From: an uncultured Chlamydiae bacterium
GTDB taxonomy: Bacteria > Chlamydiota > Chlamydiia > Chlamydiales > Parachlamydiaceae
Direction: 5' to 3'
Length of the DNA stretch: 52,348 bases
Assembly (NCBI GenBank): GCA_963830365.1
Contig: CAWHMU010000004.1
Location: forward strand, 1-52,348
Shown here one piece after another: positions 4,916 through 52,348 of this stretch. Under the pieces are notes generated by a model. The model was not told the DNA's origin and ran no database searches. It was given only the letters and a program-made list of their open reading frames with translations. Each line of letters begins with the position of its first letter. The stretch's first letter is position 1. The translations under genes and the position numbers were made by a program.

Positions 4916-5031
4916 GCTTGGTGACAATAGAGAGGGGGAAATACCTGATCCCATTCCGAACTCAGAAGTCAAGCCGCTCATCGCCGATGGTACTGCACAC
5001 AAGAGTGTGGGAGAGTAGGTCGTCGCCAAGC
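4916..5031 (+). rRNA. rrf: 5S rRNA
   Basis: GATCCCATTCCGAACTCAGAAGTCAAGC, GCCGATGGTACTGC, GAGAGTAGG; terminal stem GCTTGGTGAC/GTCGCCAAGC. Confidence 0.97.
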
Positions 5032-5043
5032 TTTTTATTCCGT

Positions 5044-5078
5044 GCCCTAGCTGCTAACGCAGCTAGGGCCTTTTTTTT
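5044..5078 (+). terminator. rRNA operon rho-independent terminator
   Basis: GCCCTAGCTGC-TAAC-GCAGCTAGGGC followed by C and T8. Confidence 0.9.
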
Positions 5079-5114
5079 GCCTCATCGTTTTTATCATCAA
5101 AATACTTTTGCCCA

Positions 5115-5292
5115 CGCAGCGCGTTTGGAGTGCGCAACTCCTGTTGCGCTTTTCGTTTCCTAAAGGCCTTTTAGGCAGTCGGAACGGCCGTTTCAGGAAA
5201 GGAAGTTCATGCGTTTTTATGTTTCCGCGTGGTTTAGAAGTCTTTATGACATGAAAAGCGCAACAGGAGTTGCGCACTCCAAACGCGCTGCG
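5115..5292. repeat. REP-like inverted doublet (family A), ~51-bp arms, ~76-bp spacer
   Basis: CGCAGCGCGTTTGGAGTGCGCAACTCCTGTTGCGCTTTTC...GAAAAGCGCAACAGGAGTTGCGCACTCCAAACGCGCTGCG. Confidence 0.9.
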
Positions 5293-5482
5293 CAGTTTCT
5301 AAACGTATTGATAGATTTACTTTCTGATGTGAGAACTGAAGTAAGCCAAATCTCAAAGTGTGATTCATCCTTCATCTTTCATCTGTTTTTCATGGCGCTT
5401 TATACAATCTTAATGCTCATCTGCTATAATTGTCGATATACTTAGAATGTTTTGATGGTTTAACAATAAATAAAATAAGGTT

Positions 5483-6091
5483 GTGAGAAATATGGTTATT
5501 CAAAACGCTACCAATCAAACTTTGTCACCAGCGCCAATTATTAATGTTCCTGTGAACAAATCCGACCAAAATCCAGGCCCCAATAAAGGTATACCAACCT
5601 TCGCAGAACTGGTAACAGCGATACCAATAAAGGCACGCTTATTAGGCGCAGGATTAGCAGTTGTGGCGGTGAATGCATATTATGCCATGAAGCCAGAAGT
5701 TGTAGAATACACAAAATGTGAAAAGACATGCCAAGTAGCTCGAGGTTTCTTTGACTACTGTGCAATAGCAGCAAGTGCACTGGTTATTGCTGTGCAAGTG
5801 GTGGAAAAACCAGCACGCGCTATACCAATGAGCATATTAACGCTGGCTTTTGGTGCCTTATATACATTGTCGAATACGCTAGAAGCTGTTATGCCTAAAG
5901 AGGGAGTTCAATCGTACATAGCAGTAGGATTGCAAGTTCCTGTATGTCTGGGAGTCCTGTATGGCGCATCCCTAATTTCCGCTAAAGTAGAAAAAGCCGT
6001 TGAAGGTTTAGGGAAAGGAAAACCAGCGGCAAGCATCGTAGCAGAACAAGCTAATGCCGATGGTGCTGTACAAAAGAGTGTAGAAGAGTAG
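5483..6091 (+). CDS. hypothetical membrane protein (about 4 hydrophobic segments, Inc-like); C-terminus encoded by a duplicated 5S fragment
   Basis: 202-aa ORF (GTG 5483 or ATG 5492), AT-rich upstream region, several hydrophobic helices. Confidence 0.75.
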   Translation: MRNMVIQNATNQTLSPAPIINVPVNKSDQNPGPNKGIPTFAELVTAIPIKARLLGAGLAVVAVNAYYAMKPEVVEYTKCEKTCQVARGFFDYCAIAASALVIAVQVVEKPARAIPMSILTLAFGALYTLSNTLEAVMPKEGVQSYIAVGLQVPVCLGVLYGASLISAKVEKAVEGLGKGKPAASIVAEQANADGAVQKSVEE

Positions 6092-6116
6092 GTCGTCGCC
6101 AAGCTTTTTATTCTAG

Positions 6117-6151
6117 GCCCTAGCTGCTAACGCAGCTAGGGCCTTTTTTTT
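6117..6151 (+). terminator. duplicated rRNA terminator now ending ORF 5483-6091
   Basis: Same hairpin and T run as 5044-5078. Confidence 0.85.
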
Positions 6152-6188
6152 GCCTCATCGTTTTTATCATCAAAATACTTTTTGCTTA

Positions 6189-6363
6189 CGCAGCGCGTTT
6201 GGAGTGCGCAACTCCTGTTGCGCTTTTCGTTTCATAAAGGCCTCGTAACCAAAAGAAAGACCGTATGCTAACTGGACTTGCGTTAACTAAAGCATTTTCA
6301 GGCTTAAAGGATCTTTATGAAACGAAAAGCGCAACAGGAGTTGCGCACTCCAAACGCGTTGCG
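6189..6363. repeat. REP-like inverted doublet (family A), second copy
   Basis: Arms nearly identical to 5115-5292; ~73-bp spacer strongly diverged. Confidence 0.9.
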
Positions 6364-6783
6364 CAGTTTATAAACGCGCTGCTAGATTTACTTTCTGCTA
6401 ATACAGCTAGGACCTTTTTTGCTTGCACGAAGAAGGACGAAGCGGACGAGGCGGACAACATCAGAAATCAGGGTGGGCAATCGGATTGGCATGATCGCCC
6501 TTCTGATCCCTTTCCCGTTCCATTCCACCGCTATTTTGTAATGTTTTCCGGGATTCTTATTTCCTAATGATCTTATTGACGCTGGAAGTTTACAAAAAAA
6601 TATACATAAAATTAGCGTAGATCTTATAATAGTAGATGTGGTTGTGTTTTATTAATAAATAAATGATTTTTAGCATAAACTTAATAAATGTTCATTAGCC
6701 ATCAGATAGCGTTGGAGCCTTTATGCCTGGTAATATTCATTTTGAAAGGGTTTTCTATAAAGCGAAAACTAACGATGTTAGGA

Positions 6784-6904
6784 AAAGGTGTCAGGCTTGG
6801 CATTTGGAGATTTTTACGCTTAAACATCTTGCCATCAATATTCTAAGTGTCAAATCTCCAAATGCCAAGCCTGACACCTTTATGACACCTTTATGACATC
6901 TTTA
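6784..6904. repeat. perfect 30-bp inverted repeat plus 3x 11-bp tandem (TGACACCTTTA)
   Basis: AAAGGTGTCAGGCTTGGCATTTGGAGATTT (6784-6813) / AAATCTCCAAATGCCAAGCCTGACACCTTT (6852-6881). Confidence 0.9.
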
Positions 6905-6913
6905 TTACGTTAG

Positions 6914-7052
6914 TATACCAGCATCTATCCATATGGACATAGCCAAAGCCCCGGGTTGAACGAACGAAAATGACCCAATATTATATATTTTCGTTCAACC
7001 GCAGGAATTTTGACACAGTCCATAGGGGGATTTTAAACGAGATGCTGGTATA
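6914..7052. repeat. imperfect multi-segment palindrome
   Basis: TATACCAGCATCT/AGATGCTGGTATA, TATGGAC/GTCCATA, GGTTGAACG..GAAAAT/ATTTTCGTTCAACC. Confidence 0.75.
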
Positions 7053-7364
7053 TAGGGCAGCGTTTTGGCTGTCTCAAACCTTTGATGAATTATCCATGCA
7101 ACCTGATCACTACGGCTTTTTTTGTTTTATCTGATTATCTAGAAACGGCCATTGCCTCTGCAAAATCTTGAGCACTTTTTCGCACGCTCAACAGCCGTTT
7201 TTAGGATTATTAATTACTTGTTGAATACTTCATGTCGATCTCTCCATTTTAAGGCATTTCCCAGACTTTATTTTTCAGAAGGTTCTCCATAATGAATTGA
7301 GAATGGCTAATGCAGCCAAAAGCGGAATTTTCTGAAATGTAGCGGCAAGATTGTAATTGTGTAA

Positions 7365-7393
7365 TTGACAAAAGTTTATTTATTATGTAGAAT
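7365..7393 (+). promoter_or_regulatory. sigma66/sigma70-type promoter for ORF 7462
   Basis: TTGACA-17 nt-TAGAAT. Confidence 0.7.
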
Positions 7394-7461
7394 GTGTTAT
7401 TACTGTAGTTGCTTATTTTGAATTACGTGTTAAACAGTTTATTTTAATTGAGATTATTATT

Positions 7462-8169
7462 ATGTCATCTTCAACAGGTGTTGTGAGTGCATCGTCAGCT
7501 TGGTTAATATCTTTGGATACTTCACTTCATCCCTCGATGGCACCCTCGCCAGCGCCACAATTGAGCGGGCAGGCTTCTCTTCAAGTAACTCCGGGCGGAA
7601 CACCGCCAGATTATACTCCTGTGCCAAGTCCCGTTCGCGAGGGGAAAAGCCATTTTTTTGAAGGATTGGACTCTCTGCCATTGCCGCCTGCTGAGGGAGC
7701 CGGAGTACAGCTTCGACCGGTTGATACGAGCTCTAATCACCCAGCGCAGCAGGCCTCGTCATTATCCGCAAATGAAGAAATCCAGCATGTAACAGCGACT
7801 TTACAGGATGATACGGAATCGTTGTACTCTGTACTGCTTGTATCGCCGGGAAGAGTTGCCGAGACAGAAGCGGTCCGCAGCCGAGAGCCTAGCAGTTCTT
7901 GCTGGGGAAGATGTTGGAAGCGCATATTAGTTCCCGCGCTCATTGGCATCCCTTTAAGTGCGATTGGATTGAATTACTGGATAAACGATTGCGCTGATTC
8001 CAATGGCGAATTTTGCCTGACAGGAAAAGTTTGCGCATCTATCGGTTTAGCATTGACAGCGCCGCTTGGCCTTTATGCTTTGGCGCGTTTAGGGATATGT
8101 GCGGCTGAAAGGTGTTGCATGAGAGCGGATGATCTAGATGACCCGGGGCAGCCGTATCAAATCCAATAG
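7462..8169 (+). CDS. hypothetical protein, Ser/Pro-rich N-terminus with C-terminal bilobed hydrophobic domain (Inc-like)
   Basis: 235-aa ORF, consensus promoter upstream, two TM segments with a short Cys-containing loop. Confidence 0.75.
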   Translation: MSSSTGVVSASSAWLISLDTSLHPSMAPSPAPQLSGQASLQVTPGGTPPDYTPVPSPVREGKSHFFEGLDSLPLPPAEGAGVQLRPVDTSSNHPAQQASSLSANEEIQHVTATLQDDTESLYSVLLVSPGRVAETEAVRSREPSSSCWGRCWKRILVPALIGIPLSAIGLNYWINDCADSNGEFCLTGKVCASIGLALTAPLGLYALARLGICAAERCCMRADDLDDPGQPYQIQ

Positions 8170-27247: not shown

Positions 27248-27447
27248 GTCTAATAGATGATTGTGCTTTATAGTGGGACGAAAGTTTTCCAAAAAGTACG
27301 ATATAATGCCGAATCCGTCAATTAAGTTAAGTGATGTTAGTGCTGTTTTGTTGTGATTATTAACAAAAAACAATTATAATTGTATTAATTGCAAAGGTTG
27401 TGGAGTTTGCTGTTAAATCAATTAAATGGTTGGCCGAGGAGAGTATT

Positions 27448-30348
27448 ATGAGCTTAATATCGGATAACAAAGGTGTTCCAGTAGACTATGCGATGATTGA
27501 AGGTATCCAAGGACCTAGTGATAAACCTGTTGAAACGAACGGCGTAAAAAAGCCCAGGGTTTTTGGTACTAAAAGCGCTTGGCGCATGCTTATTATGGAT
27601 AAAGCCGGCGCAACCCAGCAAGTAGCGATTAAACTGGGGAAGGATGGGGCCTTGTTTCCGACGAAGGCAGACGCCATCAAAGCCGGTGGCAATAGCTGGA
27701 ATTTTACCGTCGTCAAAGTAGGTTATAAAGACAAAGACGGAAAGCTTGTGACAGGTTATGTAAGAGTTAATGACTACAGCTTAGATCGCCTTGACATCAA
27801 AGCAAGTGAGGTAAGAAGCGCGATAAAAAAAAATCGGGTAGAAGCGCTGATAAATTCGAAAGTAAGTGATGTATTAAAAGAACCCATTTCTGCACAAAAG
27901 CAACCACGGCCACTTAAATCGGCATTAAAAAAAGCAGAAAAAAAACCTTCACAAAGCAGAAGTGTTTCATTTAATGAGCGAGTTGAATTTGATGACAAAA
28001 CGACAAAAGCTACAAAGGGTTTAACTGCACCCGTAAAGCCTATCGACAAGGGGGGGGCAGAGACTCCTGTCCGTAGCAAGCTGATCGTTTCGCCATCACC
28101 GACAACGACGGGGACAAGCATGACACCTGCTGGCAGGCGGTCGTTGACCGCTTCAGAAGCTAAGGCGGCAGCATCTTTTATTAATATAGTTGCAGCTAAT
28201 CTGCGTGTCTTTACAGAAGAGGAGCGTGGGGATTTGTTCGATATTTATATGAAACACGACATCGGTACCCCTGGGACGCAGCTAACGACTGCATTTCTTG
28301 ATGACGTGCGGGGTTTTCTAAATACAATCCCCGAAGAAAGAAAAGATGAGATTTTAAGCCAATTAGAGGGCGCTAGTAAGGCAAAGAGACCTGAAGTCGA
28401 GGTAACACTAGTTACACAAAGAGGGCTTATTGAGGTGGCCAGTGAGCTGGCGGATGCATTTATAGGTATCCCCGATAATGAATTTGAAGGGAATATTAGC
28501 AAGGCAGACGATAAGTTCATTAAAGATTTAGCCAAAAAGTGGACTCGTGATCCCGCCTCCTTGAAACTGGATGATGGCATTAGGCCAGAGCTAAAAAATA
28601 TTGCCGCGAAATTAGAGAAGATGGTTGAGGCCAAAAAAAATCGAATTATGGCCCATGCCGAATTGAAAAAGAGTCCATTGACCGAAAAAGAGGTTGAGGG
28701 GGTAAAAGGTCAACAGCAGTTAGCGAGAAATATTACGAAGGATAAGGAGATCAGAGCCGGATTGGTGAAGTTGCTGGACGCTATTATCGATGATAGCAAA
28801 GGTGTCAAAGGGCTTGGGGATGCCAAAGCTCTTGCCAGCTGGCAAGCGGTGAAAGCCGGCGTGCAGGCGCAAACACCGGGCCGCTTCTTAACTGACAAGG
28901 ATGTTAAGGACTACCTAAAACTAATCGAAGCAAAGCTTGGCGATCAGCTTGCAGGCATGCCAAAGATTAAGGTTTACCTACGCAATGTATCAGAATTGCT
29001 GAGTCCTGAAGTGAAACAGGGAAAGGTGCACTATGCATTTACAAAAGAGCAGATCAGAAAACAAACCGCAGACGTCCTGCATGAACGGGCGCTAAGCGGA
29101 TTAATGTCGCTGCTAGATGAGACCTTAAAGCCGGAGGCTAGTGGAGATCAAAAGGCGTTAAAAGCATTTAGGCACTCTCTGAATCAGGGGGTTGGGTATA
29201 CGGGCGACCTTAATAGATTTGAAAATCTTTACGCAAAAGTCAGGCATAAGACGCCAATTTCAGATGCGGAAATATTAGAACTAACAAAGCTCCTTGAAAA
29301 GGGGCTAACCCAAGGAATTTCGTTTTTGGGGACAGGAGCTTTTAAAACACCAACGCAAGAGTTAAAAGATGATATAAAAACTTTAATCGGAGAGGTACGT
29401 GCTGATATCAGATTAAAGGAATCGGTAAATAAAACATCGACAGCAATTGTTTTGCCAAAAGGTATGAAAGCTGAAGTAGAAGCCAGACTGCGTACAAAGG
29501 AAGCTGTAAACATTCTTCATCACGAGGCCGTTAGCAAGTTAGGGAAGCTTTTAGATGCCGCTGATAAAACTTCCAGAATAGGGGATGGTTATTCCTTAGT
29601 GCAAGCGCTTGAAAGAAGTAAGAACAACTACGGGCTGATGGTGTTTAAACAGATTCGGGATAAAATTGAGCAGGGAGACCCTGTTGCCGAAGATGCAATC
29701 AAGGAGGCTCTAACAGTTATTGAACGAGGCATGACAGCTCCTTTGAATGCAATTATGGCAGAGCCTGAGCATCCTATGCCGTTTAAAATCGATGTCGGTA
29801 TCAATGAAATAAAAGAGCTGCTGGCAGCCAAACAGAATCCCGATGTCGATAAAGTTCTGGCAAGACAGCAGCGTATGGATGCCATCCAACAGGGCGGTGT
29901 CGAAAGGAAGACAAGCAGAGGGAAAGTAATAGCTGATGAACCAGTAGCTAAACTTGTGGCGGCCCGCGCTGAGAAACTGGCCGCTGCAGACAAAAAGGGC
30001 AAAGACATTTTACAGAATGGAAAACTTATTGTTGGTTATGTCAGAGGCTTCCGCGGCAATTTGTTGAAGCCAGGTTCGGGTGTGAAGGATTTCTTTGAAA
30101 GCAATATCGTGGCGGCGGATTATGAGAGGATGCAAGAACTCGCTAATAAAGCTTCTGAGTCTGAAATTACGCTAGACGATGTTGAGGAATTGAAAGGTTA
30201 TCTGGAAGGTGTTCTCGCAGGCTGGCTTGAGAAGCGAGAGCGTAAGGGTTTTCCAAAAGACGGAAGTGAAAAGGCTGCCGCCATAATCAAACGTTACTTT
30301 AACCATTTGAGTGAGCTGCTTGCGAAAAGAGAAGAACTTACAAAATAA
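27448..30348 (+). CDS. large Lys/Glu-rich helical hypothetical protein, candidate secreted effector
   Basis: 966 aa, GAGGAG RBS, no TM or Sec signal, KSALKK and RSVSF motifs, degenerate internal helical repeats. Confidence 0.85.
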   Translation: MSLISDNKGVPVDYAMIEGIQGPSDKPVETNGVKKPRVFGTKSAWRMLIMDKAGATQQVAIKLGKDGALFPTKADAIKAGGNSWNFTVVKVGYKDKDGKLVTGYVRVNDYSLDRLDIKASEVRSAIKKNRVEALINSKVSDVLKEPISAQKQPRPLKSALKKAEKKPSQSRSVSFNERVEFDDKTTKATKGLTAPVKPIDKGGAETPVRSKLIVSPSPTTTGTSMTPAGRRSLTASEAKAAASFINIVAANLRVFTEEERGDLFDIYMKHDIGTPGTQLTTAFLDDVRGFLNTIPEERKDEILSQLEGASKAKRPEVEVTLVTQRGLIEVASELADAFIGIPDNEFEGNISKADDKFIKDLAKKWTRDPASLKLDDGIRPELKNIAAKLEKMVEAKKNRIMAHAELKKSPLTEKEVEGVKGQQQLARNITKDKEIRAGLVKLLDAIIDDSKGVKGLGDAKALASWQAVKAGVQAQTPGRFLTDKDVKDYLKLIEAKLGDQLAGMPKIKVYLRNVSELLSPEVKQGKVHYAFTKEQIRKQTADVLHERALSGLMSLLDETLKPEASGDQKALKAFRHSLNQGVGYTGDLNRFENLYAKVRHKTPISDAEILELTKLLEKGLTQGISFLGTGAFKTPTQELKDDIKTLIGEVRADIRLKESVNKTSTAIVLPKGMKAEVEARLRTKEAVNILHHEAVSKLGKLLDAADKTSRIGDGYSLVQALERSKNNYGLMVFKQIRDKIEQGDPVAEDAIKEALTVIERGMTAPLNAIMAEPEHPMPFKIDVGINEIKELLAAKQNPDVDKVLARQQRMDAIQQGGVERKTSRGKVIADEPVAKLVAARAEKLAAADKKGKDILQNGKLIVGYVRGFRGNLLKPGSGVKDFFESNIVAADYERMQELANKASESEITLDDVEELKGYLEGVLAGWLEKRERKGFPKDGSEKAAAIIKRYFNHLSELLAKREELTK

Positions 30349-50554: not shown

Positions 50555-52348
50555 CAGGGCTTTTTCATTAAAGAAATTTAACACCAAAAATTCCACTCAC
50601 AGCCAGCTCTAAGGCGATTTCGCCATTTTTATTCTCATATATCTAGCCTAATACATAAAAAAACAATTGACTTTATTTATCACGTATATTACAAGGTGTT
50701 TTAAATAAATATATGGTCTAATATGTCGATGAATCTGGTAGATCTACATCTAAACTGGGGTGCATTTACCTCTAAGGGCAAGAAGTATGTCTCCTATAGC
50801 CTTGCTAGATCCATTTGGACAAACGGCTCATGCCGGAAAGAAATCGTACTTAAATTGGGTAAACTCACTAATGAGGAAGTCGTATTCTGGCGTCAGACGC
50901 TGAAAGACGCAAAAAAACGGCGCAAGGCAATTTCTCAGACAGCCCCTAATCCTTCAGGTGACTCCAGTCCTTCACTTGTCGAAGCTAATAAGTTGACAGC
51001 GAATTCTCAGGATCCCGATACTGGAGATCTTCAAATTGCTACGGGGGATTTTGAGGGCGAAAACATGTCAGTAAGAAAGAAATTCATCTACGACGAACAC
51101 GATCAAAATGTCGATATTCACTCTTACGAGGATGCTGTAAAACATGCTTTTGCGGACGTTCAGGATCCGCGCGTCGCAGATAATCTGCAATATCCATTCT
51201 ATGGACTTCTGCTAACGATTCTGGCGGGTATTCTTGCAGGCGCAAAGTCCATCAGTGGTATTTACGAGTATGGAAAGGAAAAAGCTGCCATGTTATGCCC
51301 TTTACTTAATCTCGAACGACACCCTTCCTATACCGCCTTTTGGTGGATCCTGACGCGAACAAACCCTGAAATCTTGAACCAGGCATTCATTAAATGGATT
51401 AAGTTGGTGGCTGACACCTTGGGCGGCACTGAGAAAAAAATCTCTATCGACGGGAAAACTCTGAGAGGTGCCAAAAAGGATCTTGTTCATTACGTGAGCG
51501 GATACGAGTCTGGAAGTGGGCTTCTGCTTGGTCAAGTGAAAACAGAGGAAAAATCCAATGAGATCACGGCAATTCCAGAGTTGCTAAAGGTAATCGATGT
51601 CAAGGATGCGACGGTCACAATTGATGCGATGGGGTGCCAAAAAGGCATTGTAAATGACATCAGGGAGCGCGGAGGGCATTATGTGATTGCCTTAAAAGGA
51701 AACCAAGACACTCTACATGCTGAGGCCCAGAATTTTTTTGATCAAGCCAGAGCAGCTGATTATAAGGGGGCTAAGTGTAAAAAGTATGAAGCGACCAATG
51801 AAGGACACGGCAGGCTAGAGAAGCGAGAGGTGACAATCACCAAAAATCTCAATTGGCTGGATTGTCGAAGTGATTGGCGGGATCTTAAGATGCTGATAGA
51901 AGTGAAATCCACTAGGACGATCAAGGGTAAATCTACAGAAGAACTTCGCTACTACATTTCCAGCAAGGATATGACTGCGAAGATGGCGAACAGCACTGTT
52001 CGCTCACACTGGGGGATTGAGAATAATCTTCATTGGGTTTTAGATGTGTTATTCGGTGATGATATCTCCCGGGCCAATACTGGCCATGCAGCGGAGAATC
52101 TAGGTCTCTTTAGACGGATGGCCTATTGCATTTTAAAACAGGAAACAGTGCAAGGACGCGGTTTGGCATCAAAACAACGCAAGGCAATGTGGAATGATCA
52201 CTATGTGCTTGAACTGTTAAACAAGTTTATCAAGGAAGTGAGCAGCGGGAGCGAGGTTTACCAGCTCGAGTAGACGACTGCCGGCCTAGAGCATCAAGCG
52301 CAGCTTGTACCCGCAGGGGCGGCATGAAGAGTGTAAAGTATTTTTAAT
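50555..52348 (+). mobile_element. ISAs1-family insertion sequence (right end cut by window)
   Basis: Left end CAGGGCTTTTTCATTAAAGAAATTTAACAC; last 18 nt of window match its reverse complement at 14/18. Confidence 0.88.
50723..52273 (+). CDS. ISAs1-family transposase with ~114-aa N-terminal extension
   Basis: DPR, IDGKTLRG, EKSNEITAIPELL, TIDAMGCQK, ALKGNQ, HGRLEKR, RSHWGIENNLHWVLDV. Confidence 0.95.
   Translation: MSMNLVDLHLNWGAFTSKGKKYVSYSLARSIWTNGSCRKEIVLKLGKLTNEEVVFWRQTLKDAKKRRKAISQTAPNPSGDSSPSLVEANKLTANSQDPDTGDLQIATGDFEGENMSVRKKFIYDEHDQNVDIHSYEDAVKHAFADVQDPRVADNLQYPFYGLLLTILAGILAGAKSISGIYEYGKEKAAMLCPLLNLERHPSYTAFWWILTRTNPEILNQAFIKWIKLVADTLGGTEKKISIDGKTLRGAKKDLVHYVSGYESGSGLLLGQVKTEEKSNEITAIPELLKVIDVKDATVTIDAMGCQKGIVNDIRERGGHYVIALKGNQDTLHAEAQNFFDQARAADYKGAKCKKYEATNEGHGRLEKREVTITKNLNWLDCRSDWRDLKMLIEVKSTRTIKGKSTEELRYYISSKDMTAKMANSTVRSHWGIENNLHWVLDVLFGDDISRANTGHAAENLGLFRRMAYCILKQETVQGRGLASKQRKAMWNDHYVLELLNKFIKEVSSGSEVYQLE

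Follow-up and report, generated by a model that had tools for sequence, protein, structure and literature searches.

A predicted membrane-protein ORF that ends in a partial duplicate of an rRNA operon tail in an environmental chlamydia

Organization of the locus

The window, that is, the whole stretch of 52,348 nucleotides analysed here, is contig C4 of the genome of an environmental chlamydia (G000; a 2.73 Mb draft in 48 contigs, 82% complete), and begins inside a 16S-23S-5S rRNA operon as recognized with Rfam. The assignment to the environmental chlamydiae follows from a gene close by, whose nearest relatives carry the labels Chlamydiae or Parachlamydiaceae. The operon ends with an intact 5S rRNA gene on the plus strand (4917..5031; RF00001, 94.6 bits), which is 100% identical to the 5S of the second operon (C3:3862-3976). 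It is followed by an intrinsic terminator-like hairpin with a T tract, detected by a terminator scan (5044..5079, plus strand), and by an inverted repeat of the REPIN type, composed of two inverted REP arms around a variable loop (5115..5292, strand not applicable), the tail of which runs on to about 5342, as in the copies on contigs C7 and C16. A sigma-70-like promoter with an extended -10 element is suggested at 5401..5430 (plus strand) by a consensus match only (10/12), the scan background being 12 promoter-like sites found versus 5.4 in shuffled sequences. Downstream lies an orphan ORF of 199 aa (5492..6091, plus strand), gene-like by its codon score and predicted from hydropathy to encode a membrane protein.

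The end of this ORF overlaps a 5S remnant, recognized by alignment and profile HMM, that corresponds to 5S nt 67-115 (6056..6104, plus strand). Positions 6056-6088 of the remnant encode the last 11 residues, the TAG stop codon at 6089-6091 corresponds to 5S nt 100-102, and 6092-6104 are non-coding. A second copy of the terminator, identified by terminator scan and folding, is found 24 nt 3' of the stop codon (6115..6152, plus strand), with a 3-nt change that extends its stem from 11 to 13 pairs. The second REPIN copy, recognized as an inverted repeat and by its arm matches, occupies 6189..6397 (inverted REP pair 6189-6363, strand not applicable); it has a different loop, and its tail ends early, at a CTG that it has in common with a degenerate copy of the terminator, the third. 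Of this third copy the 3' half is present (6395..6422, plus strand); it folds weakly (-3.5 kcal/mol) and is absent from the list returned by the terminator scan. A second dispersed repeat, of the GCGGACGA type and with 27 matches in the genome, follows at 6433..6460 (plus strand) and also lies behind both 5S terminators on C3.

The operon-tail duplicate

The sequence-only reading of this DNA had proposed that 4983-5326 is duplicated downstream, and our alignment confirms this, with 83% identity to 6056-6397 over 350 columns. The duplicate holds 5S nt 67-115, the terminator and the REPIN repeat, and consists of two conserved blocks flanking one divergent loop of 70 nt. Identity amounts to 31/36 in the coding part of the remnant, 22/22 in the 5S end plus U-run, 36/39 in the terminator, 33/36 in the spacer, 40/40 and 39/40 in the REP arms, 29/34 in the tail and 38/76 in the REPIN loop. 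The two peptide readings given earlier, ADGTAHKSVGE for the 5S and ADGAVQKSVEE for the copy, each followed by a stop, are correct, with five changes of which four are non-synonymous; the 22 identical nucleotides after the stop codon and the third partial terminator (88% over 26 nt) were found as well. That the ORF reads into the copy also holds, but the start codon assigned to it (GTG 5483) does not: ATG 5492 is the likely start, giving 199 aa as in the matching database entry.

A whole decayed 5S had been suspected further upstream, for which we obtained no support. The 66-nt 5' half of the 5S aligns to the ORF no better than expected by chance (shuffle p = 0.39), 189/498 other ORF windows scoring as high, and the proposed RF00001 scan, run over 5400-7500, gave no Rfam 5S match with an E value of 10 or less. 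By alignment, nt 67 is the first 5S nucleotide in the copy, and a chlamydial 5S profile HMM built from 36 distinct chlamydial 5S genes extends this start to nt 64 (position 6053); the profile covers nt 64-115 only, and copy 2 has no full-length 5S family match. For the approximately 20 nt adjoining the junction the signal is borderline with cheap gaps, where its score is reached by 5 and 7 of 169 control windows; with standard gaps, 49/169 reach it.

A draft of 48 contigs with 82% completeness could in principle contain an artefactual join of two rRNA operon copies. However, the two copies are unlike at many positions, as are their loops, while a mis-joined repeat would be identical; the flank of the other operon, on C3, has neither the spacer nor the REPIN; and the frame of the ORF is kept across the junction. 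The divergence of the copies and the different C3 flank thus make mis-assembly extremely unlikely. Both REPIN copies carry private tail changes relative to the copies on C7 and C16, which indicates that the duplication is not brand new.

REPINs and other dispersed repeats

The REP arms have 26 matches on ten contigs of the genome. Among six elements compared, the loops are 43-77% alike and most arms 76-100% alike, and the sections of PMC3337134 cited here describe the same loop-variable, arm-conserved inverted REP pattern for REPINs. Two inverted REPs, a variable spacer, dispersed copies and a REP-associated tyrosine transposase (RAYT) in the genome were all found, the transposase lying beside a REP on C47 (NF047646, 83.3 bits versus a cut-off of 80). 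The likeness to the REPIN/RAYT systems in these sections (PMC3337134) concerns the inverted REP pairs at 5115-5292 and 6189-6363 with their variable spacer, and hence an element carried along in the duplication rather than the fusion of 5S and protein. At G000:C47:40800-42400, the RAYT is flanked by the REP family of the window locus; a Pfam scan of a short RAYT fragment gave nothing. Related REP arms occur in the genomes G009, G014, G018, G020 and G024.

The window contains two more families of dispersed inverted repeats, at 6784-6881 and about 6930-7050, with copies on C20, C41, C42, C44, C45 and other contigs; in one of these families the 30-nt arms are perfect. The ORF at 6970-7134 was considered as a transposase remnant, which a Pfam scan did not support, as it gave nothing. 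An ISAs1-family transposase (50723-52273, plus strand; NF033564) is located at the contig end.

The orphan ORF and its predicted product

With a codon model trained on 136 low-GC long ORFs of this genome, the ORF at 5492-6091 scores 0.105 per codon versus an in-frame mean of 0.074, and 0/680 off-frame slices score as high. Hydropathy analysis places hydrophobic segments at about residues 39-66, 81-108, 108-133 and 138-167. The N-terminus is uncharged or of low charge and rich in S, T, P, N and Q; the first 30 residues are 67% S/T/P/N/Q/I and 7% charged. Such an N-terminal composition is linked to secretion signals, and the product is probably a secreted orphan membrane protein.

Among 5.8 billion proteins and 1.84 billion representatives, the search for homologs returned only the protein itself. 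None was found among longer proteins, which is weak evidence, and 396 candidates in metagenome contigs yielded 0 confirmed homologs. The protein matches no Pfam or NCBIfam family, and the ESM Atlas gave only low-score unnamed clusters (0.83 and 0.76). Weak matches in 7/72 family genomes (E 0.007-0.08) were taken as chance, as the four that still aligned on re-test scored low and two of them look, by eye, like FabH and Nif3-type enzymes. A single-sequence structure model is of low confidence (pLDDT 47), and in it the 5S-derived tail is a coil with a pLDDT below 50, which says little.

The ORF resembles the Inc proteins of PMC3290821, as far as the cited sections describe them, in its orphan sequence, its long lobed hydrophobic region and its low-charge N-terminus. 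The criterion given there is a hydrophobic region at least 40 residues long, or a pair of segments joined by a short loop. In the ORF the second and third segments adjoin, the first and fourth lie to either side, and the third peaks at only 1.37. In contrast to the Inc proteins of these sections, the product would have four hydrophobic segments of moderate strength; its layout is Inc-like. A second orphan ORF in the window (7462-8169, plus strand) combines a long N-terminus rich in S and P with two hydrophobic segments that adjoin each other (151-215); its profile is more clearly Inc-like, and it has a paralog on C23 (38% over 135 aa).

Recurrence of spaced 5S copies in the genome and family

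The other operon of the same genome shows a comparable layout (G000:C3:3862-5500). There, a 326-aa ORF that matches GNAT weakly lies between the 5S with its terminator and a second 5S with a second terminator. The ORF stops 10 nt before the second 5S, which is full-length, 95% identical and has its own terminator; all six differences lie in the 5' part of this 5S, and in the terminator stem, changes on one side are paired with changes on the other. The N-terminal 150 residues of the C3 ORF resemble the N-terminus of the window ORF 27400-30348 (36%). An orphan 5S with its own terminator, 86% identical to the operon copies, is located at G000:C33:41321-41443. About 220 nt upstream of it lies a 204-aa ORF whose Cys/His pattern looks RING-like by eye and whose C-terminal half is hydrophobic.

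We searched 73 family genomes, 55 of which gave a 5S hit, and counted second copies within 8 kb. In 5/55 of them (G000, G006, G189, G415 and G419), another 5S-like copy outside any full operon was present on the same strand; related genomes are not independent cases in this count, and draft assemblies are frequently broken at rRNA genes. The layout of 5S, terminator, 1-4.5 kb of DNA and second 5S was found in the other operon of G000 and, among the other family genomes in which a 5S was hit, in 4/54. At least two 5S hits were seen at 9/80 loci of relatives (two neighbouring complete operons, and seven extra copies in six genomes, the gene-free tandem arrays of G027 and G374 included), which is not a rate, as the 80 loci were partly picked for earlier multiple hits. 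An order-wide 5S survey (about two candidates per genome, without G117) was kept out of these counts.

The seven spaced copies start at +67, 0, +37, -5, about +1 to +14, -7 and -734 relative to 5S nt 1, as measured against the operon of G000, with spacer similarity possibly under-counted in distant genomes. The copy starting at -734 includes a 23S fragment, and one copy in G006 also lacks its 5' part. ORFs lie between the copies in six of the seven cases, G189 having none of 90 aa or more. When 13 extra copies were checked, an ORF of 100 aa or more ended inside one, the window copy, and 10 and 72 nt before the copy in two others.

Several other arrangements were recorded. G006:C195 holds three 5S-terminator copies, of which two are decayed. 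Between the copies lie five orphan ORFs that look effector-like, one having a phosphatase-like HCxAGxGRS motif. On G415:C459, a 5S and terminator precede a 309-aa ORF, a 333-nt 23S fragment, a spacer and a second 5S that is 93% identical, and the duplicated operon tail has an internal deletion. Gene-free tandem arrays of 5S plus terminator occur on G027:C7 and G027:C3, with at least five copies in G027:C7, where the decayed copies share an insertion of about 12 nt, and on G374:C51, where two identical copies lie 238 nt apart.

Origin of the duplicate

The duplicate, the in-frame read-in, the gene-like codon usage, the intact terminator copy and the recurring layout are direct observations. They are best explained if the ORF ends in a partial duplicate of the operon tail that arose by non-site-specific recombination, with the 5S-derived tail as a neutral passenger and the terminator as the part that is used, an account we consider probable. 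Under this account, a block of 5S, terminator and REPIN would have been duplicated, leaving two copies that flank the orphan membrane-protein gene. The second copy was probably once a full 5S directly behind the gene, as on C3. A deletion may then have taken the old stop codon together with 5S nt 1-63/66; this is somewhat the likelier of two routes, the other, a duplication junction that fell inside the gene, being only a little less probable. The gene could survive either event, as the 5S frame offers a TAG after 11 codons and the terminator follows 24 nt on. A later deletion at the 3-nt CTG microhomology would have brought REPIN copy 2 up against a terminator copy from an earlier event, of which half was left, and the remnant, released from the constraint on rRNA, would have drifted mostly toward A/T.

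This order of events is inferred, given that the ORF has no homolog and that 0/58 loci around the neighbouring DUF3604 gene in relatives carry a 5S within the flanks covered. A scan of metagenomes for the terminator-spacer motif likewise gave 0 matches. The earlier proposal that a tandem 5S copy decayed and was overprinted by protein sequence comes closer to the data, since full or near-full second copies recur behind genes. The 5' half is nevertheless better explained, judging from the alignments, as deleted or never copied than as overprinted, no significant trace of it being left.

The same reading had also offered a gene islet integrated at the 5S. In that case an integrase would have rebuilt the gene on the left and left its 3' part on the right, in the manner of tRNA-targeting islands. 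The topology does fit the tRNA 3'-fragment duplications of PMC9897764, in whose cited sections an intact gene stands on the left and a 3' fragment on the right with cargo between; here too an intact target gene is found at one end and a 3' fragment at the other, and the cargo is an orphan of low GC content (44% versus a median of 51%). Unlike the islands in those sections (PMC9897764), the target here is an rRNA gene, the repeat measures 340 nt, the site has no integrase in its vicinity and the starts vary within the family. The genome, at 82% completeness, has three PF00589 tyrosine-recombinase matches, on C33, C36 and C5, none of them near the site, and no window ORF among those of 150 aa or more looks integrase-like by eye. 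The repeat extends about 270 nt beyond the terminator and includes a REPIN that is absent behind the C3 5S, and the seven spaced copies, starting anywhere from -734 to +67, show no short constant crossover core. The variable starts, the one 23S fragment, the lack of a nearby integrase and the 340-nt repeat therefore favour non-site-specific recombination over an islet bounded by attL and attR, and we regard integrase-mediated insertion as quite unlikely. An integrase fragment at G000:C5:6742-6921, integron-type by eye, lies near a contig end and is followed by stop codons.

It is improbable that this duplication and the subsequent deletion were set off by a RAYT working on the REPIN hairpin. 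An intact-looking RAYT is present in the genome, a REPIN is found in both copies with one junction inside the REPIN tail, and tandem REPIN arrangements are described in the cited sections of PMC3337134; the C3 duplication, however, has no such REPIN, 130 nt separate the left junction from the REP arm, and the family-wide pattern does not need this trigger.

For non-site-specific recombination, one feature calls for comment. Several second copies begin within a few nucleotides of the mature 5' end of the 5S (within about 5 nt on C3 and in G419, for which the genome's own operon could be used as reference), a pattern not expected from random breakpoints alone; a neutral spacer that has decayed may explain it. 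We consider it rather unlikely that, in Parachlamydiaceae-like chlamydiae, 5S plus terminator serves repeatedly as an integrase-free anchor that brackets new effector-like genes at operon ends and terminates them, by a boundary-specific or RNA-templated route, and that, at this locus, the rRNA-derived C-terminus is selected.

The 5S-derived C-terminus

At the DNA level, the 5S-derived piece supplies the stop codon and the predicted C-terminus of the ORF. The sequence-only reading had called this C-terminus recruited; its 5S origin stands, but recruitment by selection is not supported, the share of non-synonymous changes matching chance. Four of the five changes in the tail are non-synonymous, as are 73 of the 96 possible single changes (76%). 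All five lie on copy 2, and 4/5 are toward A or T. A stop codon is also quickly reached in 5S sequence, as 44/115 junction positions lead to one inside the 5S.

A selected, functional C-terminus, such as a charged tail exposed to the host cytosol, would be a case of exaptation. The reading frame, which has remained open, agrees with this, and so does the somewhat higher rate of change in the coding remnant relative to the adjoining non-coding block (5/36 versus 6/151; Fisher p = 0.039). The enrichment is no longer significant against both non-coding blocks (p = 0.087) or against the next 22 nt (p = 0.15), and we explain it by constraint on, or conversion of, the terminator and REP arms; the loop (38/76) and tail (29/34) of the element are less alike. 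The chance-level non-synonymous share and the A/T bias of the changes also speak against selection, while the coil in the structure model is little informative. Exaptation therefore seems unlikely; five changes are too few to decide on selection, and their pattern looks neutral and is likely so.

The remnant might instead matter as RNA, either as a 5S loop E/helix IV arm in the mRNA that binds protein or has a stabilising effect, or as part of a small RNA between the terminators. We hold this to be very unlikely. The remnant does begin near the base of the loop E/helix IV arm, and the same hairpin is still predicted; its folding energy is, however, -5.5 versus -9.3 kcal/mol, and 84% of 3000 random variants with five changes fold as well or better, by which comparison a preserved RNA fold was rejected. 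Two of the changes fall on positions that we take to form a loop E pair, which counts against an RNA role, as does the negative Rfam 5S scan. The cited sections of PMC8144298 report small RNAs between dual rrn terminators in E. coli, which would favour such a role. Rfam matches to miRNA and sRNA families were rejected, as all were under the gathering scores and due to hairpins.

Significance and comparison with known systems

The locus is likely a duplication scar at a variable operon end, and the tail a neutral by-product of duplications that recur at the operon ends of this family, with the terminator probably the useful part of the duplicate. It offers a clean bacterial case of rRNA-gene sequence that has become codons in a real-looking gene, and a single neutral tail of 11 residues is in itself a curiosity. 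More useful is the family pattern, in which operon ends repeatedly duplicate 5S and terminator around orphan, effector-like genes, and which suggests a testable route of effector gain and turnover. Annotators should also be cautious with partial 5S calls and rRNA-like protein tails.

In the open-access literature searched, no bacterial gene with codons derived in this way from an rRNA gene, and none ending in a 5S remnant, was found. Gene turnover at rRNA operon ends is known from the 5S-nqrF region of Chlamydia (PMC3932018), where variable DNA is found as it is here, and SAR11 likewise has a variable rRNA-operon region, HVR2, between 23S and 5S (PMC2217521). In the cited sections of both reports (PMC3932018, PMC2217521), gene turnover and recombination go together with genes for membrane or surface proteins. 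Francisella, like the genome studied here, has additional 5S copies, described as orphan 5S (PMC3479022). Unlike at our locus, the cited sections on Chlamydia, SAR11 and Francisella describe neither 5S-terminator copies that repeat and decay among genes nor an ORF whose end lies within a 5S remnant. Repeated terminators at an operon end are shared with rrA, rrB and rrF of E. coli (PMC8144298, cited sections), although here a protein gene with a promoter-like site lies between the terminators and the inserts are not conserved across operons.

The closest parallel in kind is T-urf13 of maize mitochondria (PMC3339608); the cited sections of PMC3925788 give no account of how T-urf13 arose. In the cited sections, T-urf13 encodes a proven, active protein that is mostly derived from rrn26, whereas the window ORF is bacterial, is known from its sequence and owes 11 of its 199 residues to the 5S. 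In both, recombination has produced a membrane-protein ORF, predicted in our case, that reads rRNA-gene-derived DNA as protein, and the window ORF holds such rRNA-gene-derived codons up to its stop.
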